Source of the DNA: an uncultured Actinomycetes bacterium
GTDB taxonomy: Bacteria > Actinomycetota > Thermoleophilia > Gaiellales > Gaiellaceae
NCBI GenBank assembly: GCA_963847985.1
Contig: CAWKBS010000009.1
Span: 59,470-123,469, forward strand
Direction of reading: 5' to 3'
Length of the DNA: 64,000 nt
Part shown: one piece after another, positions 28,094-49,146 of the stretch
Position numbering within the stretch: the stretch's first letter is position 1
How the letters are laid out: each line of letters opens with the position of its first letter
The notes under the pieces: generated by a model
Told to the model about the DNA's origin: nothing
Databases searched by the model: none
Seen by the model: the letters and a program-made list of their open reading frames with translations, nothing else
Position numbers and translations under genes: made by a program

Positions 28094-29649
28094 CCGCAGG
28101 GCTCGAGCCGCGAGGCTCCGCGCAGGCAGATCGCCACGACGTCGTCGCTGTCGGGCTCCCGGTAGCGGTGCTGGAAGGACGGGCCCTTGGGCGCGCCGGA
28201 GAGGTCGCAGTAGGCGCCGGCGAGGATGCACTGCTGCTCGCCCCAGCGGCCCGGGAACGCGTTCCAGAGCGCCGGCTCGCCCTCCGCGGTCAGCGGCAGG
28301 CGCTTGACGCACTCCACGCACTCCTCGTTGTGCGCCCACGGGACCGCGCCGTTGTGGGCCGCCTCTGGGAGCTCCCGCGTCTCCTGCTTGCAGCCGCCGA
28401 AGCACGGGCTCGGATAGGACGCATGACTGTTCCGGGCGACGAAGGCGATCGCGCGGTCACCTGCGTCGGCTATCGCGGGAAGCACGACGTCCTGCCAGGT
28501 GTCCTGGACGGCGGCGACGCGCGGGATGCCGAGCGAGCTCCAGTACGGGACAAGCGTCTCGTTCCAGTCGTAGGCGACCACGTGCTCGTGCTGCCCGTAG
28601 CGGACCTCCTCCGGGGCGAGGCTCTCGTCGCCGACGGGCTCGCAGTCGGTGCACGGGGCCAGCACGACCGTCAGCCCCTCCCAGTCGCCCGCGTGCTGTT
28701 GACAGGTGTACGGCGGCCAGCGCAGCCCAGGCCCGCAGAAGACCTTGTCGGCCACGGGCGAGGGGTTGAGCGAGTAGAACCACCAGTAGTCGACATAGAC
28801 GCGCTCGTCGCCGTCCGGACGCGTCACGTGGTAGTAGACGGCGCTCGTCTCGTTCCCGCCCCGGGGCGTTCCCGGCGCCTCGTCGAGCTTGAGGTAGTCC
28901 TGGTTCGCGTCGATCAGCCTTGCGTCCTCGACGATCGAGCAGTTGTCGTCCCCCACCGCCTTCCGGCACATCTGCACGCGGTCGTCCGCGATCGCGTCCT
29001 GGACGTCGAGCGGGTAGCGGCGCTCGCCGGAGTCGAAGAAGAGCAGCGGCCGGAACGCCTCGGCGAGGGCCTGATCCTGCTCCCCGCCCTCCGTGTCCTC
29101 GACCGGCACCGCCTGCGGCACCCGGTCGGCCGCGCCCACCGAGGGCGCGACGAAGAGGACGATGGCCAGGAGCGCGACGCCGACGACCTCCGCCTGCCAG
29201 AACACCGGGAAGCGCGGCGACTTCTTGCCGTCCTTTTCGCGGAGCCAGTACACGAACTGACAGACGGCCCACACGAGCACCGGCGCGAGGAGCAGGACGA
29301 GCCCCCAAGGGCGCGTGACGTAGGCGACCGGGATGCCGACAAGGACGAAGATCGTCGTTGCGAAGGCTCGAGGCAGCGCCCGGCCCGCGTCCTCGCCGAG
29401 GAAGAATGCCGCCGCCTGCCGGGCGATCCAGAAGATCGCGGTCGTCACGACAATCGCAAAGGCGAGGTCGCCCCAGAGGCCGGCTCCCCGCAGGAGCCAG
29501 CTCAGGCCGACGAGCAGGAAGAGCGAGACGACGAAGAGCAGGATGGCGAGCGCCCAGCGCGCGGCCACACCGCCGCGCCCCTCGGCGACGAAGGGCCGGC
29601 GGACGCGCTCGAGGAGCTCGTCGAGCCGGGAGGGCTCCTGCGCGCTCAT
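28090..29649 (-). CDS. polytopic membrane protein with Vps62/DUF946-like extracytoplasmic domain
   Basis: About 5 N-terminal TM helices, then RRYPLDV...YYHVTRPDG..VYVDYWWFY..NPSP...QQHAGDWEGLTVVL. Confidence 0.55.
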   Translation of the reverse strand: MSAQEPSRLDELLERVRRPFVAEGRGGVAARWALAILLFVVSLFLLVGLSWLLRGAGLWGDLAFAIVVTTAIFWIARQAAAFFLGEDAGRALPRAFATTIFVLVGIPVAYVTRPWGLVLLLAPVLVWAVCQFVYWLREKDGKKSPRFPVFWQAEVVGVALLAIVLFVAPSVGAADRVPQAVPVEDTEGGEQDQALAEAFRPLLFFDSGERRYPLDVQDAIADDRVQMCRKAVGDDNCSIVEDARLIDANQDYLKLDEAPGTPRGGNETSAVYYHVTRPDGDERVYVDYWWFYSLNPSPVADKVFCGPGLRWPPYTCQQHAGDWEGLTVVLAPCTDCEPVGDESLAPEEVRYGQHEHVVAYDWNETLVPYWSSLGIPRVAAVQDTWQDVVLPAIADAGDRAIAFVARNSHASYPSPCFGGCKQETRELPEAAHNGAVPWAHNEECVECVKRLPLTAEGEPALWNAFPGRWGEQQCILAGAYCDLSGAPKGPSFQHRYREPDSDDVVAICLRGASRLEPCG

Positions 29650-29696
29650 CGGAGCAAAGGTACACCCACAATTGACATATTCCTATATCGGTATAT

Positions 29697-30059
29697 ATGA
29701 TGATCGCCATGGCACGAGCAGCGACGACCGCAGACGCGTTCAACGCGGTGGCCGAGCCCCGACGGCGACAGATCCTGGACGTCCTCGCCGGCGGGGAACG
29801 CCCCGTGAACGACCTCGTCGCGCTGCTCCGGCTGACCCAGCCGCAGGTGTCCAAGCACCTGCGCGTGCTCCGAGAGGTGGGAGTGGTCGACGTGCGCGAA
29901 GACGGACGACAGCGCCTGTACCGGGTCAACGGCCATGCGCTCAAGCCCATCCACGACTGGGTCCAGTGCTACGAGCGCCTCTGGTCCGAGCGGTTCGATC
30001 AGCTCGATGTCGTGCTGGAAGAGCTCAAAGACGAGGAAGGAGACGGCAATGGTGACTAG
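29697..30059 (+). CDS. ArsR/SmtB family transcriptional regulator
   Basis: AVAEPRRRQILDVLAGGERPVNDLVALLRLTQPQVSKHLRVLREVGVV winged HTH. Confidence 0.85.
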   Translation: MMIAMARAATTADAFNAVAEPRRRQILDVLAGGERPVNDLVALLRLTQPQVSKHLRVLREVGVVDVREDGRQRLYRVNGHALKPIHDWVQCYERLWSERFDQLDVVLEELKDEEGDGNGD

Positions 30060-30528
30060 CGGAACAGCAACGGTGACGCTCCCCACGGACGAGCAGATCC
30101 TGATCACGCGGGAGTTCGACGCCCCCAGGCACCTGGTCTGGGAGGCGTGGACGAACCCGGAGCTGGTGAAGCGCTGGTGGCACGCGAACCGCGGCGACGT
30201 GACGCTCGTCGAGATCGACCTGCGCGTCGGCGGCGCCTGGCGGTACGTGATGGTGACCCCCGACGGCCTCGAGGTCGGCTTCCACGGCGAGTACCGCGAG
30301 ATCGTCCCGAACGAGCGGCTCGTCTCGACGGAGGTCTACGAGGGCTTCCCCGACGGCGAGGCGCTCAACACCTTGACGTTCACCGAGGTCGACGGGCGCA
30401 CGACGCTCGAGGTGCTCGTGCAGCACTCGAGCAAGGAGCACCGCGACGGCCACATCGACTCCGGCATGGAAGCGGGCATGCAAGACGCAATGGACCTGCT
30501 GGAGCAGATCGCGGTCTCGCTGCGCTGA
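30049..30528 (+). CDS. SRPBCC / AHSA1 (Aha1-like) domain protein
   Basis: ATG 30049 after GAAGGAG. ITREFDAPRHLVWEAWTNPELVKRWW. This is the typical partner gene of ArsR-type regulators. Confidence 0.8.
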   Translation: MVTSGTATVTLPTDEQILITREFDAPRHLVWEAWTNPELVKRWWHANRGDVTLVEIDLRVGGAWRYVMVTPDGLEVGFHGEYREIVPNERLVSTEVYEGFPDGEALNTLTFTEVDGRTTLEVLVQHSSKEHRDGHIDSGMEAGMQDAMDLLEQIAVSLR

Positions 30529-30585
30529 GGCATGGGAGCGGTGGGATCACCGGACGCGAGGCCCGGTGATCCCACCATTCGAGGC

Positions 30586-32205
30586 CTAGGGCTCCTGGAC
30601 GGCACCGGCCGGCGGCAGGCCGACCATGTGCGTGCTCTGCGCCAACAACTCCTCGGGCACGTCGAGGAACGGGTTGGGGTTCGCCGGGCAGACCGTGCCG
30701 ACGGGCGGCAGGGCACCGTCGAGGAGGTACGCGTCGACGTATTCCTGCGTGCACAGGTTGCGCCCGTAGGCGGTGTGGCCCCAGCCGGCGTAGCTCAGCA
30801 GGCGGCTGTTCTTGAGCAGCCTGGTCGTTGCCTTCGCGCCGGCATAGTCGGTGACGCCGTCGAAGAAGTTGCCGACGACGAGGACGGGCGCCGACGTGCG
30901 CGCCGTCCACGGCCCGATGTAGCGATCCTTGTTCACCGGCCATTCGGCGCACGGACTGTTGAACCACCACCAGTAAGGGCCGAAGCGAGAGCCCGCCCGC
31001 GCGAACCGGTCGATCGCCCGGAACTCGTGGAAGCTGTCCGGGTATTCCGTGTCGGCGCACTGGTTGCCGAAGTACGCATCGAGCCCGTTGTCGTAATCGG
31101 GCTCCGGTTGCGGCGGCGACAGCGCCTGGACGAGGCCGCGGCGCACCGCCCGCGCCTTCGCCTTCGCCGACTGGTCGCCGAGCGCGACGTCGGCGACGAA
31201 GTCGAGGAAGGCTCCGTAGCCCTCCGGGCCGCCCCAGACCTCCGGGGAGTACATCGCGCTCGTAGCGTCGGCGATCAGGAAGTCGTACGTGTAGAGGAAG
31301 CCGTCGCCGAGGTCGACCGGCTCCTCCTCGATCGTCCGCGCGAGCGTCTCCCACCGCTTCGCCGTCCGCCGTCCGTCACCGAACGCACAGGCTGGTCCCG
31401 CCTCCTTGCAGAGGCGCAGGAACTCGTCGAACTCCTCCTGCGTGGCGACCCGGTCGGACTCGATCTGGCGACCGCTCGACCAGAGGCGCGGGTCGAGCAC
31501 GCCGTCGATGACCAGCGCGCGCACGTTCTTGGGGAAGAGGTTGGCGTACGTGTTCCCGAGGTAGCTCCCGTACGAGAACCCCAGGTAGCTCAGCTTGTCG
31601 TCGCCGACCGCCTGGCGCAGGAGGTCGAGGTCGCGAACGACGTCGGCAGTGCTCATGTGCTCGGCAATCCGCTCGCCACGGCTCAGGCAGAGGTCTGGGA
31701 GCGACGAGTACTGGTCGTAGAACGGCCGGTACTGGTCGTTCTGGTACGGGAAGATCGGCACCGAGGAGAAGAAGGCGTTGAGCTCTTCCTCGCTCTCGAA
31801 GCAGTGCAGCGGATCCGAGTTGCCGACCCCGCGCGGATCGAAGCCGACGACGTCGAAGCGGCCGTCGAGGTTGTCGTGCAGGAACTGGCCGAAGCCGCTC
31901 AGAGCGAACCCCACGCCGGAGCCGCCGGGACCGCCGGGGTTGATGAAAACGCTCCCGATCCGATTGGCGGTGTCGCTCGCCGGAATGCGGGCCAGCAAGA
32001 TCGACGTCTTCTTTCCCCTGGGCGAGTCGTAGTCGAGCGGCACCTCGACCAGCGCACACTCCGTGCCGGGGAAATCGTCTCCGCACGGCTCCCAGTCGAT
32101 CACCGGCACCTGCGGCCCACCGCCGCCGGCCGCAACAGCCGGCCCCGCCGCAATGGCGACGAGCAGAACCGCGACCGCGACGAGCAACCCGCCTCGGGTG
32201 AACAT
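30586..32205 (-). CDS. secreted alpha/beta hydrolase, tripeptidyl aminopeptidase (S33) family
   Basis: Signal peptide from ATG 32205. NPGGPGGSGV and nucleophile elbow GFSYGSYLG. C-terminal TAP-like region with GWGH. Confidence 0.8.
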   Translation of the reverse strand: MFTRGGLLVAVAVLLVAIAAGPAVAAGGGGPQVPVIDWEPCGDDFPGTECALVEVPLDYDSPRGKKTSILLARIPASDTANRIGSVFINPGGPGGSGVGFALSGFGQFLHDNLDGRFDVVGFDPRGVGNSDPLHCFESEEELNAFFSSVPIFPYQNDQYRPFYDQYSSLPDLCLSRGERIAEHMSTADVVRDLDLLRQAVGDDKLSYLGFSYGSYLGNTYANLFPKNVRALVIDGVLDPRLWSSGRQIESDRVATQEEFDEFLRLCKEAGPACAFGDGRRTAKRWETLARTIEEEPVDLGDGFLYTYDFLIADATSAMYSPEVWGGPEGYGAFLDFVADVALGDQSAKAKARAVRRGLVQALSPPQPEPDYDNGLDAYFGNQCADTEYPDSFHEFRAIDRFARAGSRFGPYWWWFNSPCAEWPVNKDRYIGPWTARTSAPVLVVGNFFDGVTDYAGAKATTRLLKNSRLLSYAGWGHTAYGRNLCTQEYVDAYLLDGALPPVGTVCPANPNPFLDVPEELLAQSTHMVGLPPAGAVQEP

Positions 32206-32380
32206 GGAGAAGACTCGCAAGACGCACCTCCCGGGATTCGTCAGAGGCGCGAACCTACCGCCAAGCCACGTTCGCCACAAGTCCAGCATCGCGCGCTGCC
32301 CAACGGCGAAGCGCGGACCTGCGATGTCCGGCTTGAGACCGGGCGCTGTAAGCCGGTCATGGCGCGTAGGCTACGGAGCG

Positions 32381-32524
32381 ATGACTACGCTCGAGCTCAC
32401 AGACGAGGAGCTCCGCCTCGTGCGCTCCGCGCTCACCGCCTATCTCGAGGACTTCGGGCACGACGAGGCGGACATCCTGCGGGAGCTCAAGGCGATCCTC
32501 GCCAAGCTCCCGCCGCGCGACTAG
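32381..32524 (+). CDS. possible small protein (47 aa)
   Basis: MTTLELTDEELRLVRSALTAYLEDFGHDEADILRELKAILAKLPPRD. Good GC3 but a weak, very short SD spacing. Confidence 0.3.
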   Translation: MTTLELTDEELRLVRSALTAYLEDFGHDEADILRELKAILAKLPPRD

Positions 32525-32652
32525 GAACACGAAGCGCTCAGGCTCAGGGGCTTGCTGCGTCGATTGCTCGCGGCCCGGATGCCAGCGGACCCGGTGAGTT
32601 TCGTCTCGAAGACCGGTCCGTAGTGACAGTCCTGTGAACCGAGGAGGTCGAA

Positions 32653-33417
32653 ATGCTGCTCGAAGGCAAGAGCGCTGTGATCTACGGGGGCGGTGGGTCG
32701 ATCGGCGGCGCGGTCGCGCGGGCCTTCGCTCGCGAAGGAGCGAGCGTCTTCCTCGCCGGTCGCACGGAGGCCAGGCTCGAGAAGGTCGCGGAGGACATTC
32801 GCGCCGCCGGCGGACAGGTGAATACGGCAGTCGTCGACGCGCTCGACGAGAAGGCGGTCGACCGCCATGCCGACGCCGTGGTCGCCGAGGCGGGAAGCCT
32901 CGACATCTCCTTCAACGTGATCACTCACCCCCACACCCACGGGGTCCCGTTCCACGAGATGCGGGCCGACGACTTCATGGCGCCCGTGGAGACGGCCGCC
33001 CGCACGACGTTCATCACCGCCAGGGCGGCTGCGCGCCACATGATTCCCCGCGGCTCGGGCGTGATCCTCGCCTTCGGCGGCCCTGGCGATCGCAGCGCCC
33101 CGCTGCGCGACTACTACCTCGGCGGGACGCAGGTCGCCTTCGACGCGATCGAGACGATGCGACGACAGCTCTCGGTGGAGCTCGGGCCACATGGCATCCG
33201 GTTCGTGACCCTGGCCAGCGGCGGCGTGCCGGAAACGTTCTCGCCGGACTTCGAGGGCGCGCCGGACATCACGAAGATGATCGAGGATCAGACGCTGCTC
33301 GGCCGAGCGGCGACGCTCGAGGACGTCGGCAACGCTGCGGTCTTCGTAGCCTCGGACTGGGGTCGCACCCTGACTGCGACGATCGTCAACGTCAGCTGCG
33401 GCGCGCTGATCGACTAG
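32653..33417 (+). CDS. SDR family oxidoreductase
   Basis: GKSAVIYGGGGSIGGAVARAFAREGASV (TGxxxGxG-like). 254 aa. Confidence 0.85.
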   Translation: MLLEGKSAVIYGGGGSIGGAVARAFAREGASVFLAGRTEARLEKVAEDIRAAGGQVNTAVVDALDEKAVDRHADAVVAEAGSLDISFNVITHPHTHGVPFHEMRADDFMAPVETAARTTFITARAAARHMIPRGSGVILAFGGPGDRSAPLRDYYLGGTQVAFDAIETMRRQLSVELGPHGIRFVTLASGGVPETFSPDFEGAPDITKMIEDQTLLGRAATLEDVGNAAVFVASDWGRTLTATIVNVSCGALID

Positions 33418-33594
33418 GCACGCCGCGCCCGGTTGGCCGCAAGGAACCTCTAAGCGATTGTCTCGGGACCTTTGCGGCTTCGCCGCCGTCGAGACACAGC
33501 ATGGACATTCGTGACAAAAGGTGCTATGTGTCGCCCGTCCCAGGGAGGCCGTCCTCGGGGGCGCGCGCCTCCCGGAAGTCAGTCAGGAGGTCCC

Positions 33595-35196
33595 ATGCGA
33601 CCACCACTCAAAAGGGCTCGATGGGCGCTCGCGATTGTCGGCGCTCTGTCCGCGATGCTCGTCGCCGCTTCACCCGCCGGCGCGCGTCCTCAACCGTCGG
33701 TCCCGACACTCAAGTGGACGGAGTGTGGCGACGGAGTCGAGTGCGCGACCGCAAAGGTGCCGCGCAACTACGCAAGACCCCACGGACGAAAGATCGAGAT
33801 CGCCGTGGCAAGGACTCGGGCGCTGGACCCGAGCCGCCGCATCGGCTCGTTGTTCTTCAACTTCGGCGGCCCCGGAGGCGAGTCGGTCGGCGCCCTCCAA
33901 TCGGTCGGCGCCGACCTCTTCCCCACGCTGAGCGATCGCTTCGACATCGTTGCTTTCGATCCGCGGGGCGTGGGACAGAGCAGACCGGCAATCGACTGCA
34001 AGGTCAATCAGGAAACCGTCGGTCTCTACGCACAGCCCTTCACGACACCTGAGAATCTCGACGTCCGTGCCCTGATCGACCGCTCCAAGTTCTACGGCCG
34101 CCGCTGCCTCCAGCTGAACCCGGGGATCCTTCCCTACGTCGCAACCGCGAACGTCGCCCGCGACCTCGACCTACTCCGCGCGGCCGTCGGCGAGCGCAAG
34201 CTCAACTACCTCGGCTGGTCGTATGGCACGTACCTCGGCGCGACGTACGCGAGGTTCTTCCCGCATCGCTTCCGCGCGCTCGTGTTGGACGGCGCCATCG
34301 ATCCGGACCAGTATGCGAATCGCCCGCACGCGTACCTCCTGGGCCAGAACGGCGGATTCGAACGGGCGCTCGGCCGTTTCCTCCAGGCCTGTGCCGCGCA
34401 CCAGGACGTCTGCGGCTTCGGAGGCGACGACCCCTGGACCGCCTACGACGAGCTCCTGGAACGGCTCGATGTCACACCCATCCCCGCCGGCGGCGACGAC
34501 CCGCGGCCGGTCGACGGCGACGACGTCCGAGCAGTGACCGTGGCCGCGCTCTACGCAAAGCAGAACTGGCCGTTCCTCGCGCTCATGCTGCAGGAGGCCG
34601 AGGACGGAGACGGGACCCTCGTCCGTGAGGTCGTCAACGGCTTTTACGGGCGCCTGCCCGACGGTACCTTCGATCCGTTCGGAGATCGCTACTTCACGAT
34701 CGAGGGAGTCGACCAGCGGTTCAAGAACGACATCGGCTTCTACCTTCGCGGCGGCGCCGACTCCTGGGCGACCTTCGATCACTTCTGGTGGAACGCCGGC
34801 TACTCGGAGATGCCCTGGGGCCTCTATCCGGTGAAGCCGCGAGGCGTCTACTACGGCCCGTTCAACGTGCCACGGTCAGCTCCGATGACCCTCGTAGTCG
34901 GCACGACGTACGACCCGGCCACGGTCTACCGCGGTGCGAAGCAACTCGTGGCGCAGATGGGTCGCGCCCGGCTCCTGACGATGCGAGGCGACGGCCACAC
35001 CGCCTACTACGGCAACTCGCCGTGCATCGACACGGCCGTGGACGCCTATCTCGAGAACCTCAGGCTCCCCGCCCCCGGAACGGTCTGCCTGCAGGAGGTC
35101 CCGTTCGAGGCGGAAGCGGCGTTGACAAATCGAGCCGCCGCCGCCCGCTTTGTAGACGTGCTTCGACTGCACCTAAAGCCCGGATTCCCTCGCTAG
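33595..35196 (+). CDS. secreted alpha/beta hydrolase, tripeptidyl aminopeptidase (S33) family (paralog of 30586..32205)
   Basis: ATG 33595 after AGGAGG. Signal peptide RWALAIVGALSAMLVAASPAGA. FGGPGGESV, GWSYGTYLG and GDGHT. Confidence 0.8.
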   Translation: MRPPLKRARWALAIVGALSAMLVAASPAGARPQPSVPTLKWTECGDGVECATAKVPRNYARPHGRKIEIAVARTRALDPSRRIGSLFFNFGGPGGESVGALQSVGADLFPTLSDRFDIVAFDPRGVGQSRPAIDCKVNQETVGLYAQPFTTPENLDVRALIDRSKFYGRRCLQLNPGILPYVATANVARDLDLLRAAVGERKLNYLGWSYGTYLGATYARFFPHRFRALVLDGAIDPDQYANRPHAYLLGQNGGFERALGRFLQACAAHQDVCGFGGDDPWTAYDELLERLDVTPIPAGGDDPRPVDGDDVRAVTVAALYAKQNWPFLALMLQEAEDGDGTLVREVVNGFYGRLPDGTFDPFGDRYFTIEGVDQRFKNDIGFYLRGGADSWATFDHFWWNAGYSEMPWGLYPVKPRGVYYGPFNVPRSAPMTLVVGTTYDPATVYRGAKQLVAQMGRARLLTMRGDGHTAYYGNSPCIDTAVDAYLENLRLPAPGTVCLQEVPFEAEAALTNRAAAARFVDVLRLHLKPGFPR

Positions 35197-35205
35197 ACAT
35201 CCACG

Positions 35206-35239
35206 ATTGGCCCCGCCGCATTCCGGCGGCGGGGCCAAT
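35206..35239 (+). terminator. 14-bp perfect stem hairpin (ATTGGCCCCGCCGC-attccg-GCGGCGGGGCCAAT)
   Basis: Read directly, 10 nt after the stop at 35196. No U-tract follows. Confidence 0.55.
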
Positions 35240-35448
35240 CTCACTCCCTTGTTCGGAATGAAAAACCTGCGTGAGCGGGGCTTTAGGAGAGGGAGGGAGA
35301 GAGGGTGAGTTCCAAGGAACCAGCGCGCCCTGTTCTGAAGCTGGCTTCGAGAGCACCTACAGCCGAGGCACTTCAGACATGCAACGATGAATTCTGAACC
35401 GCCGTCCTCTAGCTAGCTGCCGCCGTCCGGTCAGTCGTTCTAACCAAG

Positions 35449-35473
35449 CCGATGAGGCGGGAATCGAACCCGC
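35449..35473 (-). other. tRNA-like 3' fragment (T-arm plus acceptor 3' strand only)
   Basis: The minus strand reads GCGGGTTCGATTCCCGC-CTCATCG. No matching 5' acceptor strand, D-arm or anticodon arm could be folded from the 90 nt upstream. Confidence 0.3.
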
Positions 35474-35835
35474 GCAAGATCCGGGACGTAGGAGCCTGAT
35501 GGGAAAGCAAGGTCGCGCGCGGTCACGAACTGTTCCTCGATCAGAAGTCGTGACGGTCAACAGACGGTTACTGGCTTCCTTGAGACTGTGCTGCGGCGAT
35601 GAATCCCTACTTGGCGCGTCCTGATGTCCCAGGCGAGACGGCGTAGATCGGCTTCTCCGGCGGGCAGTCGGGATCTAGTCGCGACGATCAGGGCGTCTAC
35701 TGCGAGTCGCAAACGAATCACCGCAGGGCTGAGTTGCGCGTTGAGGCGGTAATGCGGTGATATGGAGGTGCCTTGAACGCCTGTCGCGCGTGAGGGACAC
35801 TGACTGGACCGTCCTCAGGAGTAGGGAGGGCACGC

Positions 35836-38666
35836 GTGTCGAGTTCGCTGCGCCAGCCAACCTCTGCGGCTCCAGCTTCTTCGCCGGCTAGCGGCAACGG
35901 CAAGTCAAGCGCGGACTACGACGGCTTCATCTCGTACAGCCACGCCGTCGACGGACGGCTCGCGCCTGCCCTGCAAAGAGGCCTGCACCGGTTCGCCAAG
36001 CCGTGGTACCGCCTGAGAGCGCTCCGGGTCTTCCGCGACGAGACGAGCCTTTCCGCGACTCCAGAGCTTTGGCCCTCGATCGTCGAGGCGCTGGACGGCT
36101 CCCGCTGGCTCATCCTGCTCGCTTCGCCCGAGGCCGCCGAGTCGCCGTGGGTGAACGACGAGGTCGCGCACTGGTGTGCCACGGACTCGAACGAGAAACG
36201 CGTCATGGTGGTCGTGACGAAGGACGATCACGAAGGTGGCTTCGACTGGGAGACATCGACTGCCGTCCCGCCTGCTCTCCGGACGGCTCTCCCGTACGAG
36301 CCTCGCGTCGTCGACCTGCGCTGGGCGCGCGAGGATGGCGATGTCTCGCTCCAGAACGCGCGCTTCCGCGACGCGGTCGCCGACGTCGCGGCTCCGTTGC
36401 ACGGACGGGCGAAGGACGAGCTTCACGGCGATGACGTGCGGCAGCACCGACGCTCGAGGCGCCTCGCGAGTGCCGCGGCGGTGGTCCTAGGGATACTGGC
36501 GCTCGCCGCGACGATCGCCGCAATCCTCGCCGTCCGCGCGTCGAACCGCGCCGAGGCCGAGGCCCGCGTCGCCACCTCAGTCGGTTTGGCCGGCCAGGCA
36601 GTTGGTGAGTTCGACACGCGGCTTGACCTCGCGCTCTTATTGAGCCTGGAGGCATATCGAGTCGAGCCCACGTTCGAGGCTCGGCGCAGCGGGCTGACCG
36701 CTGTGCAGCGCAGCGCTCGGATGATTCGAGTACTGCGAGGCCACGAGGGTTCGGTGCCTAGCGTCGCCTTCAGCCCGAACGGGGAGACGCTCGCCTCGGC
36801 CGGTGGGGACGGGACGGTCAGACTCTGGGACGTCGCCGAGCGCCAACCGCTGGGCGAACCCCTCATCGGCCACGAGGGTACGGTGTGGAGCGTCGCCTTC
36901 AGCCCGAACGGGGAGACGCTCGCCTCGGCCGGTGAGGACGGGACGATCAGACTCTGGGACGTCGCCGAGCGCCAGCCGCTGGGCGAACCCCTCCTCGGCC
37001 ACGAAGGTTCCGTGTCGAGCGTCGCCTTCAGCCCGAACGGGGAAACGCTCGCCTCGGCCGGTGGGGACGGGACGGTCAGACTCTGGGACGTCGCCGAGCG
37101 CCAGCCGCTGGGCGAGCCCCTCCTCGGCCACGAGATTGCCGCATGGAGAGTCGCCTTCAGCCCGAACGGGGAGACGCTCGCCTCGGCCGGCCTGGACGGG
37201 GCGGTCAGACTCTGGGACGTCGCCGAGCGCCAACCGCTGGGCGAGCCCCTCATCGGCCACGAGGGTCCGGTGTCGAGCATCGCCTTCAGCCCGAACGGGG
37301 AAACGCTCGCCTCGGCCGGTGGGGACGGGACGGTCAGACTCTGGGACGTCGCCGAGCGCCAGCCGCTGGGCGAGCCCCTCATTGGCCACGGGCTTGCGGT
37401 GTGGAGCGTCGCCTTCAGCCCGAGCGGAGAAACGCTCGCCTCGGCCGGTGACGACGGAGCGGTCAGACTCTGGGACGTCGCCGAGCGCCAGCCGCTGGGC
37501 GAGCCCCTCATCGGTCACCAGATTGCCGCACGGAGCGTCGCCTTCAGCCCGAAGGGGGAGACGCTCGCCTCGGCCGGTGACGACGGGACGGTCAGACTCT
37601 GGGACGTCGCCGAGCGCCAGCCGCTGGGCGAGCCCCTCCTCGGTCACGACGGTCCGGTGTGGAGCGTCGCCTTCAGCCCGAAGGGGGAGACGCTCGCCTC
37701 GGCCGGTGACGACGGGACGATCAGACTCTGGGACGTCGCCGAGCGCCAGCCGCTGGGCGAGCCCCTTCTCGGCCATGAGGGTGCGGTGTTGAGCGTCGCC
37801 GTCAACCCGAACGGGGAGACGCTCGCCTCGACCGGCTACGACGGGACGGTCAGACTCTGGGACGTCGCCGAGCGCCAGCCGCTGGGCGAACCCCTCCTCG
37901 GCCACGAGGGTGCGGTGTGGAGCTGGAGCGTCGCCTTCAGCCCGAATGGAGAGACGCTCGCCTCGGCCGGTGACGACGGGACGGTCAGACTCTGGGACGT
38001 CGCCGAGCGCCAACCGCTGGGCGAACCCCTCATCGGCCACGACGAGTACCGTGCGGGAGGTCGCCTTCAGCCCGAACGGGGAGACGCTCGCCTCGGCCGG
38101 ATGACGACGGGACGGTCAGACTCTGGGACGTCGCCGAGCGCCAACCGCTGGGCGAACCCCTCATCGGCCACAAGGGTAGGCTGTGGAGCGTCGCCTTCAG
38201 CCCGAACGGGGAGACGCTCGCCTCGGCCGGTGACGACGGGACGGTCAGACTCTGGGACGTCGCCGAGCGCCAACCGCTGGGCGAGCCCCTCATCGGCCAC
38301 GAGGGTACGGTGTTGAGCGTCGCCTTCAGCCCGAACGGGGAGACGCTCGCCTCGGCCGGCCCGGACGGGACGGTCAGACTCTGGGACGTCGCCGAGCGCC
38401 ACCCGCTGGGCGAACCCCTCATCGGCCACGAGGGTACGGTGCAGGAGGTCGCCTTCAGCCCGAACGGGGAGACGCTCGCCTCAGCCGGCGAGGACGCAAC
38501 GGTCAAATTGTGGGACAGCATTCTCTGGAGTGACGACTTCGATGCCTGGCAGGATCGCCTGTGCGACATCGTGGCGCGGAACCTCACCCTGAGTGAGTGG
38601 GGGGACTTCCGCTCCGGCGCACCGCCCACCAGGACCTGCCCGCAGTGGCCGATCGAGCCCGAGTGA
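35836..38666 (+). CDS. TIR domain / single TM helix / 14 x WD40 repeat protein (two 1-nt frame disruptions in blade 11 as given)
   Basis: GTG 35836 after GGGAGGG. TIR motifs YDGFISYSH, FRDETSL and SRWLILLASPEAAESPWVNDEV. RQHRRSRR plus a 23-aa hydrophobic helix. The WD40 array spans three frames: track ORFs 35836..38316, 37910..38104 and 38310..38666. Confidence 0.8.
36739..38516 (+). repeat. tandem array of 14 near-identical 129-nt (43-codon) WD40 units
   Basis: The period was verified at unit starts 36739, 36868 ... 38424 (GGCCAC). Unit 10 carries +6 nt and unit 11 carries +2 nt. Consensus: GHxxxVxSVAFSPNGETLASAGxDGTVRLWDVAERQPLGEPL[IL]. Confidence 0.9.
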
Positions 38667-38952
38667 TTCGGCGGCAGCCGAGCCGTCTCGGCAGCAGAAG
38701 GGGCGCCAGGCCGTCGCACAAGCTCGACTCCATATGGGGACCGCTGGCTCTCCGGCGACTAGTGGCCGGCTTCGTCGGCCGGGGGAAGGCGGGGGCCGAC
38801 TCGAGCAGTCGTGTCGCGTATGCCTCTGCCGCCTTAGGAACCCATGCAGGTGCGTCTAGGCTCTCCTTGAGCGCTTCGCGCGGTCGACGACACACTGAGC
38901 GCGCCAGGCATCCACGTATGCGCACCGACGGCGCCGCTCATACGGTGAGAGG

Positions 38953-38988
38953 GAGGAGGGGCGCACCGAGCGAGCGCGCGCCCTCCTC
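38953..38988. terminator. GC-rich hairpin between convergent genes
   Basis: GAGGAGGGGCGC...GCGCCCTCCTC imperfect 11-bp stem, read directly. No clear U-tract. Confidence 0.3.
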
Positions 38989-38994
38989 GCTGTC

Positions 38995-41693
38995 CTACTT
39001 CTCCTTGGGCGGCTTCGCGAGCTTGGGGTCGATGAGATAGCTGAGACCGCCGACCACGCGGCCGTCGACCTTCGCCAGGATGCGGATCATCTGTCCGCCT
39101 TTGAGCTCGCTCGGCTTGAAGGGCCTTCCCTCCTTGAGCACCGTCCTGATCGCACGGCTCTCCCGCGCCGTGAGCGTCAGCGTCCGCGTGCCCGTCCACT
39201 CGAGTTTCAGCTCCCAGCCGCGCCTCCGGAGGAGGGGCGGCAAGACCGGCTCGAGGACCATCTTCACCCTCTTCTCGAACGGGTTGTGCGCCCAGAACCT
39301 CCGCTTCTTGAAGGACGCGACGAGCCCGAGCGTTGTCCCCGCGACAGGCGCCACGTTGCGTTGGCCGATGTTGTTGTCGTAGGGAACGAGGCGCCAGTGT
39401 GGAGTCGGCCCCAGGGCACACGGCCGGCCGGAGGCCGCGTCGATGTTGCTCAGATCGCCCGTTGTCGTCGCCGTGGCGAGCAGGCACTCGTGACCGACCA
39501 CGGTCGGCGTCCACTCGAACGGGCCGACGAGGACAGTGCCGCCGGGGCCGATCGGTGCCCCCACGGGCAGCTCGGGCGTCGTCGTCGCGACCCAGTCGGC
39601 AGGCCAGACGAGACCGGACGCGGGGCGGCAGTGGTAGCACCGGACGGTGACGGTGGTGGCGGTCTGTGTGCCGCGGTTCTTGACCTTGACGTAGAGGAAG
39701 TTGGGCCGGCCGACGATCGGTGTCTGGTGGACGAGGCCGGCGTCGGCGGCCAGTCTGTTCCAGATGTCCTGGTTCTCCCAGAACACCTCGCGGTAGGGGT
39801 ACTCGCCGTGCCGCCCGTCGTCGATGTAGACGTCAATGTCTGGTGGCGCCCCGACCGTCGTCACCGGGGCCGGCGCGCCCGCGGGCTGGTAGAGGCCCTG
39901 CTTCTCGAACGCCCAGCGGATCACCTTGGCATAGGCGCCGCCGGGCTGGCCCTCGAAGCTCGCCGAGGCGGTGTCCGCCGTCTGTAGCGCGGTCGCGAAG
40001 ATGGTCGCCGTCGGTGTGGCTACGATCGGGCTCTGCGCCAGGCTGCCGATCGCCCGGACGATGAGATACGCCGCGTACCGCGCGCCGAGACGGCGCATGC
40101 TGACGTTCGTGGAGTCGCCGCCGATCGAGCGGTAGAACCGAAACAGGCTCGTCGAGAGGATCTGCTCGCTCCCGTAGTCGGCGCTTCCGTTGACGGTGGG
40201 GCCGTTGTCGTTCGGCCCTCCCCACGCCCATGACGCCACCGGCCGATCGTGGCGCCTCATGACCACCGTCCAAGGGAACGTGCGGAAGCGGTCGGGCGCG
40301 AGGGAGCCCGGGTCGTTCAGGATCGCCGCCAGGCTGTCCCCGGCGCTGTGGGCGAACCCGAAGTTCGCGGAGTTGACGCTGTCCCAGAGCAGCGCATGCC
40401 CGAACTCGTGCAACACGACGCGCCAGTCGCAGGCGATCCCGACGGGCTGCCCGCTCGCCTGGAGGGCGAAGCGGAAGCCGTCCGAGCCGGTGCCGCCTGT
40501 ATTCCCGGGAGCAGAGGCGTTGACGCAGTTCCCATTCGGACACTGGGTTCCGATCGTTGCCCGGTGATCGACGCGCACCGGGAACGTCGTCCCGTTGAAG
40601 TAGGTCGAGATCGTGAAGCCCATGCCCGCGACCATCCGGAAGAGGGCGTCGCAGTGGTGGTAGGCGTTCACAGCCGCGAAGTTGTCGGTCGGCACGGAGT
40701 AGTTGAAATTGCCGGTCGACGTCGGCGGCGCCACGGTCGGCGCGGTGATGTCCACGAGCTGGACGTACTGACCCGTCAGCGTCTGCGGGCTCGCCGTCGT
40801 CAGGCCCTGGAGGGTGACGGTGTCGCGGTGCGCGTCGAGCGTCGCCGCGGGGGAGGCGGGCGTAATCGTGGCGTCTCCCGTCTTGGTGAGCGGATCCCTT
40901 AGATAAACGGCGCCGTCCACCGCGGCGACGAACGCGCGGAGGTACAGCACCCCGCCCGTCTCGGGCTCGACGAACGAGCGCCAGTTGATCGGCTCCCCCC
41001 AGCCGCGGATGGAGGCGGTGAAGAGGACTTCCGTCACGACGTAGTGTCGATCGTCCTTGATCCCGTCCGGCACCGGCGGCAACGGGAGCGACGGTGACTC
41101 GAAGTGGAGTTTGCCGCCATCATCGTCGTCCGCGGGCACGAGCTCAGGGTCGAAGCGCTGGAGCGCGTCGTAGCGGTAGACGAGGAGCCGCGTGCCGTTG
41201 ATCTTCACACCCCCGCGCCGGCCCTCGAGACCGAGGAGCGGCCGCAGCGTCTTCGGGGTGATCCCCTCCGGCAGGAACGGCGCGTCGGCCGGCGGGCTCT
41301 TCGCGTCGATCTCCGTGTGGATCGTGCTGTTCGAGCTTGTCACGCGCGGGGGCTTGTCCTGGAGGACCACCGCCACCCCGGCCTCCCACACCGGCAGACC
41401 GAGGTACGTCTGCTGATAGGAGATCAGCGCCGTCTCCATGACGGACTTCTCGTCAGCGAAGTGCAGCGCCGCACCCTCCCCTTCTGCCAGCTCGTCGCCC
41501 GCGCTCGCGTCCACGTCCGCCAGCATCGGCTTGGTGAGCCCGTACTCCTGCGCCACCTCGGCGACGTAGTCGGCGGCCACCCCGCGGAGGTCCTGTCTGG
41601 GCTGAAATAGGGCTGGGCGATGTGCTCGATGTGCCGAGCGACGCCCTGCTCGTCGTACTCGACAGTGACGTTGGGCGTGATCTCAAAGGCCAT
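38995..41693 (-). CDS. large thermolysin/fungalysin-like HExxH metallopeptidase homolog without signal peptide (frame break at C4 run 41580-41583)
   Basis: Track ORF 38995..41580 (VVLHEFGHALL...FAHSAGDSLA; FTP-propeptide-like YQQTYLGLPVWEAGVAV; CARDB-like NFLYVKVKNRGTQTATTVTV). The first 38 codons of ORF 41424..41693 (MAFEITPNV..., ATG preceded by AAGGAGG) join it if one G is added. Confidence 0.7.
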
Positions 41694-42152
41694 CGACTAC
41701 CTCCTTGCTGATGAGCGCGGCGGGACGCGTTCCCCGCCGACAGGCGGGTGGTCAACCGCATGGATCTTGCGCCTGGCACACCTCCGGACTTAGAGGGCGC
41801 CGCAGAGGCTCCAATCCATACCACTTTGGATCGGTCGAAGAAAGCTCGGCCGTGCCTGGCGGGTTCGCGACCGAAGCCTTCCGCGGCTGCGCTGGCTGAG
41901 CCGTCAATCGGCGCGGGCTCGAACGGGCGGGCGCGGCGCTGATCCGATGGGCTGCCTAATGCCACGCTGAACGACGCCGCCAGGACGACCGTCACTCCCC
42001 TGGGTAGCGCCAGAGCTCCGCGCTTCACACGAACTTCATTAGGCACAAACACGTCATAGCCGATTTGCGATTGCGAGGCGACACTTATGCAAGGCAAGCG
42101 AACCCCGCCCGCTGATGCTGGGGAACCCTGACGAAAGGACGTTGAAGTAGCC

Positions 42153-42434
42153 CTGCATGAGTTCACGATCCGCATCGAGACTCCGCCGGGCACCGAGTGC
42201 GACGAGGAGAAGGCCGCGCAGGTGGACGATGCCATCGAGCCGCGTCCAGAGATCACTTCCGTGACAACGGATCACTCGAGCCAGTCGGGCACGATCTCGT
42301 CGACGTTCCGTGTGCGAGCGCCAACCGTCGACGACGCACAGGAGATTGCGCTACGGGCCTTCACCGCCGCCCTGTTGGTCGCGAGCATCAGCAGCGAGCA
42401 CGGTTGGCTGCTCGTTGAAGTAGCGGGCCCCTAG
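42153..42434 (+). CDS. small hypothetical protein (70-93 aa)
   Basis: Track ORF 42222..42434. High GC3 extends upstream to CTG 42153 (frame open from 42132). Sequence: LHEFTIRIETPPG...FRVRAPTVDDAQEIALRAF...WLLVEVAGP. Confidence 0.35.
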   Translation: MHEFTIRIETPPGTECDEEKAAQVDDAIEPRPEITSVTTDHSSQSGTISSTFRVRAPTVDDAQEIALRAFTAALLVASISSEHGWLLVEVAGP

Positions 42435-42995
42435 GCGCGCGAGCGCCGGGTGGTTCCTTCCACCGGCCTGCTGCCAAACGGTCACCGGATCGGAACACCG
42501 TGACTCTCCCCGCTGCGTTAGCTTCGCTGAGTTCCTTCGCTCTCGCCCAAGTGAGAGGGGACATAGGGCGAGTGTCGGCTCGGCGTAACCCGGCGGACCG
42601 CGCTGCCAGGCGCCGCCCTTAGCCGGGCCGACACCCTCCGTCTTCTCGCTGGCGGAAAAGATCGGGAGCCGGTTGACTCCCTGAGACTTGCGCCCTCCTC
42701 TTTGGCTGACGCCTAGAGAGCCGTTGGTGACGTGCCCGCGAGCCCGGAGACGCGCAGCCGCCATTGAATCTCAGCCTCAGAGCCTGGCGGAAAGTCGACG
42801 GCCATCTCGTTTCGCCCATCCCGCCAGGTGAGGCGGTCCAGGGTCCGGGCGAGGACGTAGCCGATCGCCAGCCCGGCAAGGATGAACCCGAACGCGTTAG
42901 GGACAGTCCGCACCGGCGGTGAAGTCTATGGCGTTCGGGCCTGAGCTGGTGGCCGGAGGGCGGGGCTGCACGCCCTCGCTTCCGAAACGACGAAA

Positions 42996-43018
42996 CCCCT
43001 GCGCCTGCGGGGGGTTTT
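42996..43018. terminator. hairpin plus T4, degenerate copy of the tRNA-Gly-proximal hairpin
   Basis: CCCCTGC-gcct-GCGGGGGG-TTTT, preceded by AACGACGAAACC as at 44493. Confidence 0.35.
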
Positions 43019-43584
43019 ACTGAGAGGGGGCGAGCGTTCCAAGAACACTCACATCCCGCTGTTCAGGCCGTGTCTCAGGCGTCTTGGCTACGGCGCACTT
43101 CCGCTGCGAGAACCGGTGAGCGCCTGAAACCGCGATCTCCGGCTTGAGTCGCCCTTGCCTGTCCACCCAGGGGCCGGGTCCGCGGGGCGTCGCGCGGGCC
43201 TTAACACGTCCGCGCGGACCCCCTAAGGCCTCGAAATCTCACAGCAATCGTCTGCAGGGCGGCGGCGCGCGGGCGGCGGGCCCGGTTGACCGCGGCGGCC
43301 GCCGACCCCTCAGTGTGAGCCGAGGAACGAGCACGCTGCGACCTAGCCCGGCACCGCGTGGGCCCAGCAGACGTCGGAACCGACAGGAAGGTTGTGATCG
43401 GGGAGACGCGGCGTTCATCCGATAGACGTCATCGATTCGTTGACGCAGTTCACGGTCGAAGGCGGGATCGGAGGCAGCCAGCTGAGATGGAGGGTGCATC
43501 GTCACTCATTCCTAGACGGGCGGCGTGCTCAGCGCCCGACACGACCGAATGGCCGCATGAGATCGACGAGATCATTCCAAAATC

Positions 43585-43821
43585 GGCGAGTAGCTCGCCA
43601 CGCGCGCCTGGGGCCACCCACTCTGGGATCTCCTGGGCGCTCGCCGCCGGATCCCGCCGAGCGACGTCGCCCGCTTCGGCGGGACGAGCGTGACGATGCT
43701 CGAGCGCACCTACGCGCACCTGCTCGAGGGGAGCGCCGAGGCCGCGAGGCAGCGGCTCGACGCGTTCACCAACAACGCCGCCCACGAGGCGGAAGAGGCA
43801 AGGCATGAAAGGGCTATGTAA
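43585..43821 (+). pseudogene. tyrosine recombinase (integrase) C-terminal remnant, frameshifted and 5'-truncated
   Basis: Own translation gives ...ATHSGISWALAAG in one frame, then IPPSDVARFGGTSVTMLERTYAHLLEG...* in the next. This is box II (HxxR...Y) with the catalytic Tyr. No N-terminal or core domains lie upstream. Confidence 0.5.
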
Positions 43822-44197
43822 GGGCCGCGTAGAGGTCGACCCGTACACCGTCGGGGTCGCCGAGCAGGGCGTAACGTTGGCCCCAGAAGGCGTCCCACGG
43901 CTCCTTCTCGCCTTCGAAGCCGGCCGCGACGACGCGAGCGTACACCGCGTCGACCTCGGCGGCGCTTGCGCATTCGAACGCGAGCGAGAGTTGGTTGCCG
44001 TTCGCCCGCGTCCAGCCGGGAAGGAAGCTGCGAATGACCTCCTCGGTGTCGAACATCAGACGCGTGCCATTCGCCATCGTCGCCTCGACATGCCCCTCGG
44101 TGGGGTCGTCCGGAAGCTCGAGCCCGAGCAGACGGTAGAACTGCACCGAGCGTCGCAGGTCAGCCACTGTGATGCCGATCGCGTTCAGGTCGGCCAC
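43814..44197 (-). CDS. VOC / glyoxalase-bleomycin resistance family protein
   Basis: IGITVADLRRSVQFYRLLG...FWGQRYALLGDPDGVRVDLY. 127 aa. Confidence 0.8.
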   Translation of the reverse strand: MADLNAIGITVADLRRSVQFYRLLGLELPDDPTEGHVEATMANGTRLMFDTEEVIRSFLPGWTRANGNQLSLAFECASAAEVDAVYARVVAAGFEGEKEPWDAFWGQRYALLGDPDGVRVDLYAALT

Positions 44198-44502
44198 ACG
44201 ACAACGTTACACGGGCGTGTCGTTCGGACGTTGGGGCCATCGGGTGACATCCCGAACACTGGCGCACGCCGGCGTGCTCGCGCTCGGAGCAGGACGGACA
44301 GAGAACGGTCTCGCCTGGCCTACTCTCGGCCGGAAGCCAACAGCGGACACAGTGGAACGCCACCCCGCCATGTTGCCTGAAACGAGAACGCGAACCGAGG
44401 GAAAGAAAGTGCGGACGAGAGGCACGTCGAGTACTACCGTCAACGTTTGGGCCACTAGCGGGCCACGGAACGGGCGCCCGCCGCGCCCCTTAGACGACGA
44501 AA

Positions 44503-44528
44503 CCCCCGTGTCTGCGGGGGTTTTCTTT
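44503..44528. terminator. hairpin CCCCCG-tgtctg-CGGGGG followed by TTTTCTTT, abutting the 3' end of tRNA-Gly
   Basis: Read directly. The U-tract is on the plus strand and the A-tract on the tRNA side, so it may act bidirectionally. Confidence 0.5.
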
Positions 44529-44530
44529 AG

Positions 44531-44603
44531 AGCGGACGACGGGGCTCGAACCCGCGACCCTTGGCTTGGGAAGCCAATGCTCTACCAGCTGAGCTACGTC
44601 CGC
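44531..44603 (-). tRNA. tRNA-Gly (anticodon CCC)
   Basis: Hand-folded cloverleaf: GCGGACG-TA-GCTC-AGCTGGTA-GAGC-A-TTGGC-TTCCCAA-GCCAA-GGGTC-GCGGG-TTCGAGC-CCCGT-CGTCCGC-T. 73 nt, CCA not encoded. Confidence 0.85.
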
Positions 44604-44747
44604 CTGCGTCGAGCACGATAGCACCGCGCTGGAGCGCCAATAACTCATCGGAGGGATGGCCTCCGGGGTGCCTATCGACGACGATATGAGGGAATTCTGA
44701 CGTGCGGTGTGCGGCCACCACCCGCCGGCTTGCTGGAGGTGTCTGCC

Positions 44748-44906
44748 TTGGGCTACACAAAGCTGACGCGACGCGAAAAAGGACAGACGATGGCCGAGTA
44801 CGCCGTCGTCCTCGGTGTCATCACGCCCGTGCTCGTCCTCGTGTTCGCCACCATGGGAAGCGCGATCGTCGCCCGACTGCAGACGGTCGTCGGCTTCCTC
44901 ACATGA
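44748..44906 (+). CDS. Flp/Fap family type IVb pilin (orphan in this window)
   Basis: ...EKGQTMAEYAVVLGVITPVLVLVF matches the Flp motif (G-x4-EY plus a hydrophobic helix). TTG 44748 follows GGAGG plus 8 nt. The track start at 44709 is unlikely. Confidence 0.6.
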   Translation: MGYTKLTRREKGQTMAEYAVVLGVITPVLVLVFATMGSAIVARLQTVVGFLT

Positions 44907-44967
44907 TGCTCGGATAGCAACCGAAGGGGCCCGGGCAGACCGGGCCCCTTCGTCTGTGCGCTCGCCT

Positions 44968-46830: not shown

Positions 46831-47015
46831 GGGTCGTCTCCTCTCCCCAAGTGACAGGTGCCTCTTATACCGCGCGGAGGGCCCGTTGTGAAGGGCGGAG
46901 AAGCACGAGGGGCGGCTGCCGCAAAGCCGCCCCGCGCTGGCTCGATCCTACTCCTCCTCGCCGCCCGGGTGGATGGAATACTGGGTCCAGACGGTTTCCG
47001 AGAGGAGAGGAAGCG

Positions 47016-48047: not shown

Positions 48048-48050
48048 CGG

Positions 48051-49043: not shown

Positions 49044-49146
49044 GACCCGGGGATCGTATGCCACCCGCGACACTCCGTGGCGGACGCCTCTTAGGATGGC
49101 CTGACACCGACCGAAGGGACCCGCGCTGACGCTGAGCCAGCTGGCC

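Follow-up and report, generated by a model that had tools for sequence, protein, structure and literature searches.

To our knowledge, almost all characterized bacterial immune sensors, TIR systems included, respond to cytoplasmic cues, and their switch is an NTPase, a partner protein or a nucleic-acid guide. Fusions of a TIR to WD40 repeats, like TIR-STAND-WD40 proteins, are already known. Here, we analyzed a 64,000-nt stretch of DNA from an uncultured Actinomycetes bacterium of the Gaiellaceae (GenBank assembly GCA_963847985.1, contig CAWKBS010000009.1, positions 59,470 to 123,469 of the forward strand), hereafter the window. It holds a gene that, once two frameshifts are repaired, encodes an N-terminal TIR domain, one hydrophobic helix and fourteen WD40 units, with no NTPase between them; we refer to this arrangement as TIR-TM-WD40 (TM, transmembrane). 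The original prediction, drawn from the DNA letters alone, had called such a receptor uncharacterized. This stands as far as the literature shows, since no description of a single-pass TIR-WD40 architecture without an NTPase was found in the searchable literature. The architecture is common, however: its relatives, ~940 residues long, are abundant in databases, with more than 3,000 clusters spread over many phyla.

The window TIR shares its fold, and a Glu at the catalytic position, with the enzymatic immune TIRs (L6/L7, RPP1, RUN1, AbTir, ThsB, SPARTA and SARM1), but it is only 14–24% identical to solved TIRs, and its NAD-cleaving (NADase) activity is a prediction. Unlike those proteins, it is linked by a membrane helix to a WD40 sensor, and neither a module nor a partner of the ThsA, Argonaute, STING or NLR type accompanies it. 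In these families, self-association is expected to trigger activity. The window likewise lacks the pairing of a ThsB-type TIR with a ThsA gene (SIR2/SLOG or Macro/TM) that defines Thoeris: the neighbors are hydrolases, a short-chain dehydrogenase and a protein with an HExxH motif, and PADLOC made no Thoeris call. Toll-like receptors have a similar layout of repeat sensor, single span and cytoplasmic TIR, and their ligand-induced TIR juxtaposition is a natural model. However, the polarity is opposite, the window protein being of predicted type II, with an N-terminal TIR, a C-terminal sensor and a signal anchor in place of a cleaved signal peptide. In addition, the sensor of Toll-like receptors is a leucine-rich-repeat solenoid and not a WD40 propeller, and their TIR is a scaffold, whereas the window TIR retains the enzymatic Glu. 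There is no sign of common descent of the whole architecture, and the protein falls outside the Toll-like receptors. The Toll-like topology that had been proposed for it thus survives as an analogy of layout, with the domain order reversed and WD40 repeats instead of leucine-rich repeats.

STAND proteins of the effector-NTPase-WD40 type (fungal HET-E/NWD; bacterial NACHT, NB-ARC and nSTAND1) also place an effector at the N-terminus and near-identical WD40 repeats with a variable top face at the C-terminus. In contrast, the window protein has a membrane span and no NTPase, and ~100 helical residues separate its TIR from its WD40 array. Pfam matched the N-terminal 301 residues to TIR families only, and the 25 of 55 Pfam matches listed for the rest of the protein were to WD40-type families only, with no NTPase. 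The interval in which STAND or NLR-like proteins carry a P-loop NTPase is here a predicted helix, and no NTPase family occurs among the 25 most frequent families listed for 41 full-length homologs. These matches agree with the earlier claim that no NACHT, NB-ARC or AAA module is present, and with the NTPase missing, activation of the receptor cannot use nucleotide exchange. The propeller receptor kinases PknD and CRINKLY4 are built alike, their single span joining a catalytic domain in the cytoplasm to a propeller outside it, as predicted here, but their output is a kinase rather than a TIR, and the window protein has classical, doubled WD40 propellers. Highly repetitive prokaryotic WD40 proteins, such as PkwA, share the 14 repeats (two propellers), the full D-H-S-W tetrad in each blade, the very high internal identity and the variable hot spots; a TIR or a membrane span in such a context is unmentioned in the survey of these proteins (Hu et al., 2017; PMC5587647).

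Three TIR motifs lie in the N-terminal part of the protein (DYDGFISYSH, residues 27–36; FRDETSL, residues 66–72; SRWLILL...WVNDEVAHW, residues 89–113), which Pfam assigns to TIR_2 (PF13676; 31.2 bits vs. a cut-off of 28) and ThsB_TIR (26.9 vs. 21.2 bits). An AlphaFold model of residues 20–205, built from an 84-sequence alignment, has a predicted local distance difference test score (pLDDT) of 84.9 and the flavodoxin-like, alternating beta/alpha fold of solved TIRs. Its top Foldseek matches in the PDB were TIR domains (E 1e-4 to 1e-2, TM-score 0.4–0.55), including flax L7/L6, RPP1, RUN1, SPARTA TIR-APAZ, MyD88, EcThsB and AbTir. By sequence alignment, E109 falls on the Glu of the W-C-L-x-E-L motif in flax L6/L7, the catalytic Glu of plant TIR NADases; a RUN1 "E100A" mutant bound to NAD is also in the list of PDB matches. 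This Glu does not vary among 41 homologs taken from genomes and 83 taken from databases, nor in any of the alignments A1, A2 and A4. The TIR with a Glu at the catalytic position was therefore correctly recognized at the outset, and this conserved Glu, in the helix after W-x-x-x-E, predicts a TIR of the NADase type.

The hydrophobic helix that follows has a mean Kyte-Doolittle value of 2.78 over 19 residues and is the sole such segment in the protein. A hydrophobic helix (Kyte-Doolittle value of at least 1.8) lies ~212 residues from the N-terminus in 105 of 107 full-length homologs, with no second segment, and its hydrophobicity and length (19–26 residues) are conserved while its sequence is not. 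In the AlphaFold2 (AF2) model of residues 1–604 (pLDDT 85.3), the hydrophobic stretch sits midway along one unbroken 66-residue helix (residues 193–258), which is followed by helices at residues 263–276 and 280–292; homologs conserve a motif in this linker (SR.LAA....D.ALLLA.EA.R..PT.EAR). Lys and Arg residues in the 15-residue flanks number 4.4 on the N side vs. 2.8 on the C side, with more on the N side in 41 of 46 cases, and 4.84 vs. 3.82 among the 107 homologs (N side higher in 72, equal in 27, lower in 8). Both the single helix after the basic cluster and the positive-inside bias had been noted beforehand, and both held up. 

Cys pairs confined to one side of a membrane are a known signature of exported, disulfide-bonded proteins. 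The Cys count C-terminal to the helix is even in 96 of 107 close relatives (two in 63, four in 25, six in 6 and eight in 2), and the TIR side of the same proteins shows no even bias (none in 65, one in 31, two in 9, three in 2). The last two Cys stand 24–26 residues apart in 94 of the 107. Beyond this conserved pair, 63 relatives have no further Cys, 5 have one, 25 have two, 4 have three and 6 have four, a distribution that departs from Poisson (p = 4e-21) and in which even non-zero counts outnumber odd ones (33 vs. 11, p = 0.0013). The actinobacterial members of a parity comparison with more distant relatives gave 8 even vs. 1 odd. Cys parity was rejected as a universal topology marker, because the bias is limited to the close, actinobacterial clade. 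A disulfide joining C909 to C934 probably staples the tail of the window protein (family consensus AC.R..RNLT..EW...PY..TCP). Taken together, the flanking charges and the even Cys count in actinobacterial relatives favor a cytoplasmic TIR and an exported propeller, and we consider it likely that the propellers lie outside the membrane.

Pfam detects 14 WD40 stretches (E 7e-174), with the first GH of the array at residue 302, and Tandem Repeats Finder (TRF) reports a period of 129 nt in 13.7 copies (90% matches, score 2703), so the count of 14 blades from this residue was accurate. AF2 gives the first seven blades pLDDT values mostly above 90, with ~70–88 in the last two. Units 1–13 are 90.4% identical at the DNA level, and the stabilizing tetrad (H2, S20, D24 and W30) is invariant across them. 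The units vary chiefly at four of their 43 codons (3, 5, 7 and 23), which encode the residue preceding the tetrad Asp and the stretch that follows GH (loop and first part of the inner strand). At these hot-spot codons, unit pairs differ by 2.97 non-synonymous vs. 0.21 synonymous codons. Residues at such positions of WD40 structures sit on the top face of the propeller. Hu et al. (2017; PMC5587647) report such variation, at interaction hot spots predicted on the top face, in highly repetitive prokaryotic WD40 proteins. A related contig, L062, carries a syntenic gene with the same number of repeats, and the base mismatch between the two copies reaches 32% at the hot-spot codons, compared with 5.8% in the N-terminal part and 7.4% at the other repeat positions. 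The binding face is thus what changes between strains.

In a scan that took one genome per species, 61 loci encoded relatives of residues 28–300, helix and linker included, in the Actinomycetota, Acidobacteriota, Myxococcota and other "delta" lineages, Alpha-, Beta- and Gammaproteobacteria, Gemmatimonadota, Verrucomicrobiota, Nitrospira and Planctomycetes. Most of the homologous open reading frames (ORFs) are 850–1200 residues long and have a strongly hydrophobic 19-mer ~190–250 residues in; TIR_2 was matched in 41 of 41 full-length homologs and WD40 in 39 of 41. Their consensus keeps W-V-x-x-E, the basic cluster RQHRRTRR, the motif after the membrane helix and the Cys tail. HMMER, run with residues 1–301 against 1.84 billion representatives, returned 3,250 clusters at E<=1e-30 and 5,722 at E<=1e-10 (clusters defined at 50% identity), and the best matches cluster at 900–1000 residues, the 14-blade format. 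The window protein is 40–68% identical to hundreds of proteins over residues 11–301 and has the TIR, basic cluster, helix, linker homology, length (942 residues) and tail spacing (25 residues; 24–26 in the family) of the group. The window copy is thus an ordinary, possibly broken, member of the TIR-TM-WD40 family. A hidden Markov model of the linker, aimed at other N-terminal modules on the same chassis, recovered from all fetched loci nothing but TIR-type relatives, and a search with the last two WD units and the tail returned only fragments of 215 residues or fewer. Members are named in databases only as "TIR domain-containing protein", "WD40 repeat protein" or "hypothetical", and neither NCBIfam nor PHROGs gave a meaningful family for the receptor.

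No conserved neighbor accompanies the homologs, the most widespread neighbor cluster being present in 5 of ~45 loci. Some loci contain a second protein built on the same chassis beside the homolog: a different TIR-TM-WD40 protein (L001:1903-4893), a paralog (L006:7168-9855, minus strand), an nSTAND1 NTPase-TM-WD40 protein with a membrane helix at residue 712 and the same Cys tail (L053:3345-8015), and a kinase-TM-PD40 protein (L013:4594-7437). On this basis, the putatively exported WD40 sensor seems to be a module shared across TM-linker-WD40 chassis proteins.

We put at an even chance the proposal that the repaired gene encodes a self-contained single-pass receptor-effector, with the TIR inside and the propellers outside, that acts as an immune-type surface sensor. 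An N-terminal TIR of the NAD-cleaving type would lie in the cytoplasm, one long helix would cross the membrane and continue outside as a charged stalk, and two highly stable WD40 propellers with a disulfide-stapled tail would stand beyond it. On the cell surface, the variable top faces of the propellers may recognize a foreign protein that evolves fast, such as a competitor's toxin, a lytic enzyme, or a tail or ejection protein of a phage. TIR NADases need self-association to form active sites. Binding would cluster or re-orient the receptors, and clustering would unite the cytoplasmic TIR domains such that active sites form. NAD+ would then be consumed or turned into a signal, and the infected or attacked cell would stop growing; an NTPase switch and a partner gene would be dispensable. 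Extending this proposal to a pan-bacterial family of one-protein, Toll-like immune receptors, whose hypervariable outer propellers would switch a cytoplasmic NADase TIR by clustering, is more tentative, and we regard it as possible rather than probable.

Several observations weigh against an immune surface receptor. NADase activity requires the catalytic Glu but is not guaranteed by it, PADLOC gave the receptor no defense-family assignment, and the neighbors of homologs (ABC transporters, penicillin-binding proteins, kinases) do not form obvious defense islands. Near-identical repeats are a minority trait, as DNA-level periodicity was found in just 5 of 45 homologous genes, at 69–77%, which makes the window copy an extreme "highly repetitive" WD40 protein. 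Arg is also plentiful in the stalk directly past the helix, which leaves the positive-inside bias moderate, and the even-Cys bias is gone among members that are more distant and for the most part Gram-negative (13 even vs. 13 odd). In addition, the window copy is frame-broken and the adjacent HExxH gene has a 1-nt deletion, and with frame breaks in both genes the locus may be decaying. The charges and the Cys counts bear on whether both globular parts could be cytoplasmic, the helix being a membrane tether or oligomerization helix only, which would make the protein a membrane-associated intracellular sensor akin to a STAND-type TIR-WD40 protein minus the NTPase. Classical WD40 domains that have the D-H-S-W tetrad typically belong to cytoplasmic proteins, Arg and Lys are frequent in the stalk (2.8–3.8 per 15 residues), and parity bias is confined to the actinobacterial clade. 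However, one membrane-spanning helix cannot keep both flanks on one side, this helix, of 20–25 residues, is conserved in hydrophobicity and not in sequence, as in membrane spans, and in the 96 of 107 close relatives the even counts and the terminal Cys pair occur only C-terminal of it. Extracytoplasmic propellers in single-pass receptors also have precedents, M. tuberculosis PknD being a single-pass receptor kinase of this kind. Plant CRINKLY4, with its WD40 ectodomain (bioRxiv 10.1101/2020.08.10.245050), is another. We therefore judge a wholly cytoplasmic protein to be quite improbable. The main competing explanation accepts the span and assigns the protein a non-immune role in transmembrane signaling or scaffolding, with outer propellers that bind a self component (cell wall, neighboring hypha or partner protein) and a TIR that serves as an interaction module or makes a regulatory nucleotide in development, envelope stress or kin recognition, and is not a killer. 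Penicillin-binding proteins, MacB/FtsX transporters and Ser/Thr kinases with a TM-propeller layout among the homolog neighbors would suit such a role, as would the missing PADLOC assignment and a locus that is syntenic in a related strain and lies off the mobile insertion described below; near-identical WD40 repeats with variable hot spots are also a mark of fungal allorecognition NLRs. Against it, the invariant Glu points to an enzymatic TIR, hot-spot divergence between strains better fits a changing, foreign or polymorphic ligand, and no partner is conserved, and on balance we find a non-immune role unlikely. Finally, the adjacent HExxH metalloprotease-like protein could form a two-gene system with the receptor, for instance as a protease that processes it or is controlled by it, and the two genes are adjacent and convergent both in the window and in L062. 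Convergent genes do not share one operon, though, tblastn found the HExxH protein in 0 of 61 homologous loci, and its 89%-identical homologs on two further contigs (L063 and L064) lie in an unrelated context without a TIR-WD40 gene, which argues that it is not a partner. A linkage of the two was consequently rejected, and a two-gene system appears very improbable.

A different objection is that the feature is a dead gene in this genome, a decaying remnant along with its HExxH neighbor and without present function, to which we assign slightly less than an even chance. The deposited sequence has two plus-strand ORFs, 35836..38316 (826 residues, the last ~80 out of frame) and 38310..38666 (118 residues). 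Three-frame translation resolves them into a single gene, spanning the interval first proposed, in which the frame moves +1 twice, both times inside WD unit 11; deleting the single A's at 38045 and 38101 yields one 942-residue protein. A public gene call (P0121) is identical to the 118-residue ORF, so the split is also in the deposited record. These two insertions and a 6-nt duplication fall in units 10–11, and the neighboring gene adds a further lesion: homologs of the HExxH protein start MAFEITPN...FSPDKDLRGVAADYV, and in the window the loss of one A at ~41593 puts the first 33 codons out of frame. Three frame-breaking indels thus occur within 3.6 kb, in two adjacent genes, and the remaining window genes inspected appear intact and read through. 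On the other hand, the indels aside, the gene has no stop codons or other decay, and its repeats keep a selective pattern, with variation limited to the hot spots and the D-H-S-W tetrad intact. The source also resembles a metagenome assembly, as do L062, L063 and L064, judging by their contig names, and near-identical tandem repeats are error-prone. The L062 copy of the gene alone contains ~30 indels, which makes consensus errors in such repeats plausible and, equally, means that L062 cannot serve as a frameshift reference: it lacks the extra base at 38045 and has equal length at 38101, but it is a noisy assembly. The L062 gene is also fragmented, into four called pieces, most likely through assembly indels. 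The window copy may accordingly be an inactive gene, or the assembly may be wrong at both bases. Identity with L062 is 94.3% over window positions 28319–42092 (151 gap openings in 13.9 kb) and 97.5% over 44529–50000 (14 gap openings in 5.5 kb), indels being ~4x denser left of 42 kb, and the block left of 42 kb is either strain-variable or poorly resolved in metagenome assemblies. As a separate observation, gene call P0127 from L062 (ENA contig_112309) has GHEGPANSVAFSPTGE in place of GHEGTVQEVAFSPNGE in the last-but-one repeat, and the called ORF begins in an out-of-frame reading of the preceding repeat.

In the TIR-TM-WD40 family, a TIR of the enzymatic type is joined directly to a fast-evolving, protein-binding and, as predicted, exported sensor, and the family has thousands of members. 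If they are immune surface receptors as we propose, recognition outside the cytoplasm would exist in bacterial immunity, and a single polypeptide would provide a clean model for the activation of TIR NADases by clustering across a membrane. It would also be a striking convergence with Toll-like receptors, the logic of the receptor having arisen independently. Near-identical repeats with variable hot spots, for their part, offer a natural scaffold, and it might be possible to predict its specificity from sequence or to re-engineer it. The coordinates of the gene, its parts and the adjacent features are collected in Table 1.

Table 1. Features of the TIR-TM-WD40 locus, in window coordinates.
Feature	Position	Strand	Basis or remark
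Whole TIR-TM-WD40 gene	35836..38666	+	ORFs, three-frame translation; two frameshifts; 942 residues once repaired
TIR domain with family-specific C-terminal extension (residues 27–190)	35914..36405	+	Pfam, AF2/Foldseek, invariant Glu
Glu109 codon	36160-36162	+	Catalytic position of TIR
Basic juxtamembrane cluster RQHRRSRR (residues 202–209)	36439..36462	+	Family consensus RQHRRTRR
Single hydrophobic helix (residues 210–233), predicted membrane span	36463..36534	+	Hydrophobicity, homologs, AF2
Charged stalk helix and two short linker helices (residues 234–301)	36535..36738	+	AF2; ends in closing strand of first propeller
Fourteen WD40 units (43 residues / 129 nt)	36739..38516	+	Pfam WD40 x14, TRF; enough for two 7-bladed propellers
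In-frame 6-nt duplication TGGAGC (WS to WSWS)	37924..37929	+	Unit 10; not in L062
Frame-breaking extra A, first	38045	+	GACG(A)GTACC vs. 129-nt repeat consensus; unit 11, within hot-spot codons
Frame-breaking extra A, second	38101	+	GGCCGG(A)TGAC vs. 129-nt repeat consensus; unit 11
C-terminal tail with conserved Cys pair, and stop	38517..38666	+	C909 at 38562-38564, C934 at 38637-38639
HExxH protein (motif HEFGH)	38995-41693	-	Convergent with TIR gene
Imperfect 44-nt repeats, 77% identical	42974-43017, 44481-44524		Copies of terminator-like hairpin after tRNA-Gly
1.5-kb segment with glyoxalase-family gene (43814-44197, -)	43037-44528		Absent from L062
tRNA-Gly(CCC)	44530-44603	-	Sole Rfam match across window

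The original prediction had also placed the TIR gene on a tRNA-linked island, which the analysis does not support. The window is collinear with L062 over 28.3–43.0 kb and 44.5–50 kb, and the TIR gene is syntenic there; the 1.5-kb segment beside the tRNA is the only segment missing from L062 and the only tRNA-linked insertion, and the TIR gene lies outside it. No direct repeat of the tRNA 3' end encloses the TIR gene, the 44-nt repeat around the insertion being the only one, and neither Pfam nor PHROGs detected an integrase. A possible integrase remnant at 43594-43818 on the plus strand (...FGGTSVTMLERTYAHLL...), recognized by eye only, was rejected, having no Pfam or PHROGs support. The 1.5-kb segment looks like the remnant of an element that integrated beside the tRNA. 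A G+C content of 0.65–0.69 over ~29–47 kb, vs. 0.71–0.73, is the sole island-like trait of the region; it is compatible with old foreign DNA and proves nothing.

The HExxH protein, read as an 861-residue ORF, had no match in Pfam, NCBIfam, PADLOC, PHROG or the PDB. Its family has more than 2,000 members of 890–1030 residues, some of them with an FTP propeptide (PF07504), and JGI sometimes labels them "zinc metalloprotease ZmpB". Beyond this gene, ~1.3 kb at 41700-43000 (G+C ~0.66) has no convincing ORF and gave no match to Pfam (stop-free segments) or Rfam; from 42147 onward, this region is 97% identical to L062. Upstream of the TIR gene, a short-chain dehydrogenase (32653-33417) lies between two paralogous TAP-like alpha/beta hydrolases (Abhydrolase_1 plus Abhydrolase_4), one on the minus strand at 30586-32289 and one on the plus strand at 33472-35196, an arrangement kept in L062. 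A GlpX-type (class II) fructose-1,6-bisphosphatase at 48051-49415 on the minus strand was confirmed by Pfam, and an apparent second GlpX-type gene, recognized by eye from its translation, lies at 13491-14480 on the same strand.

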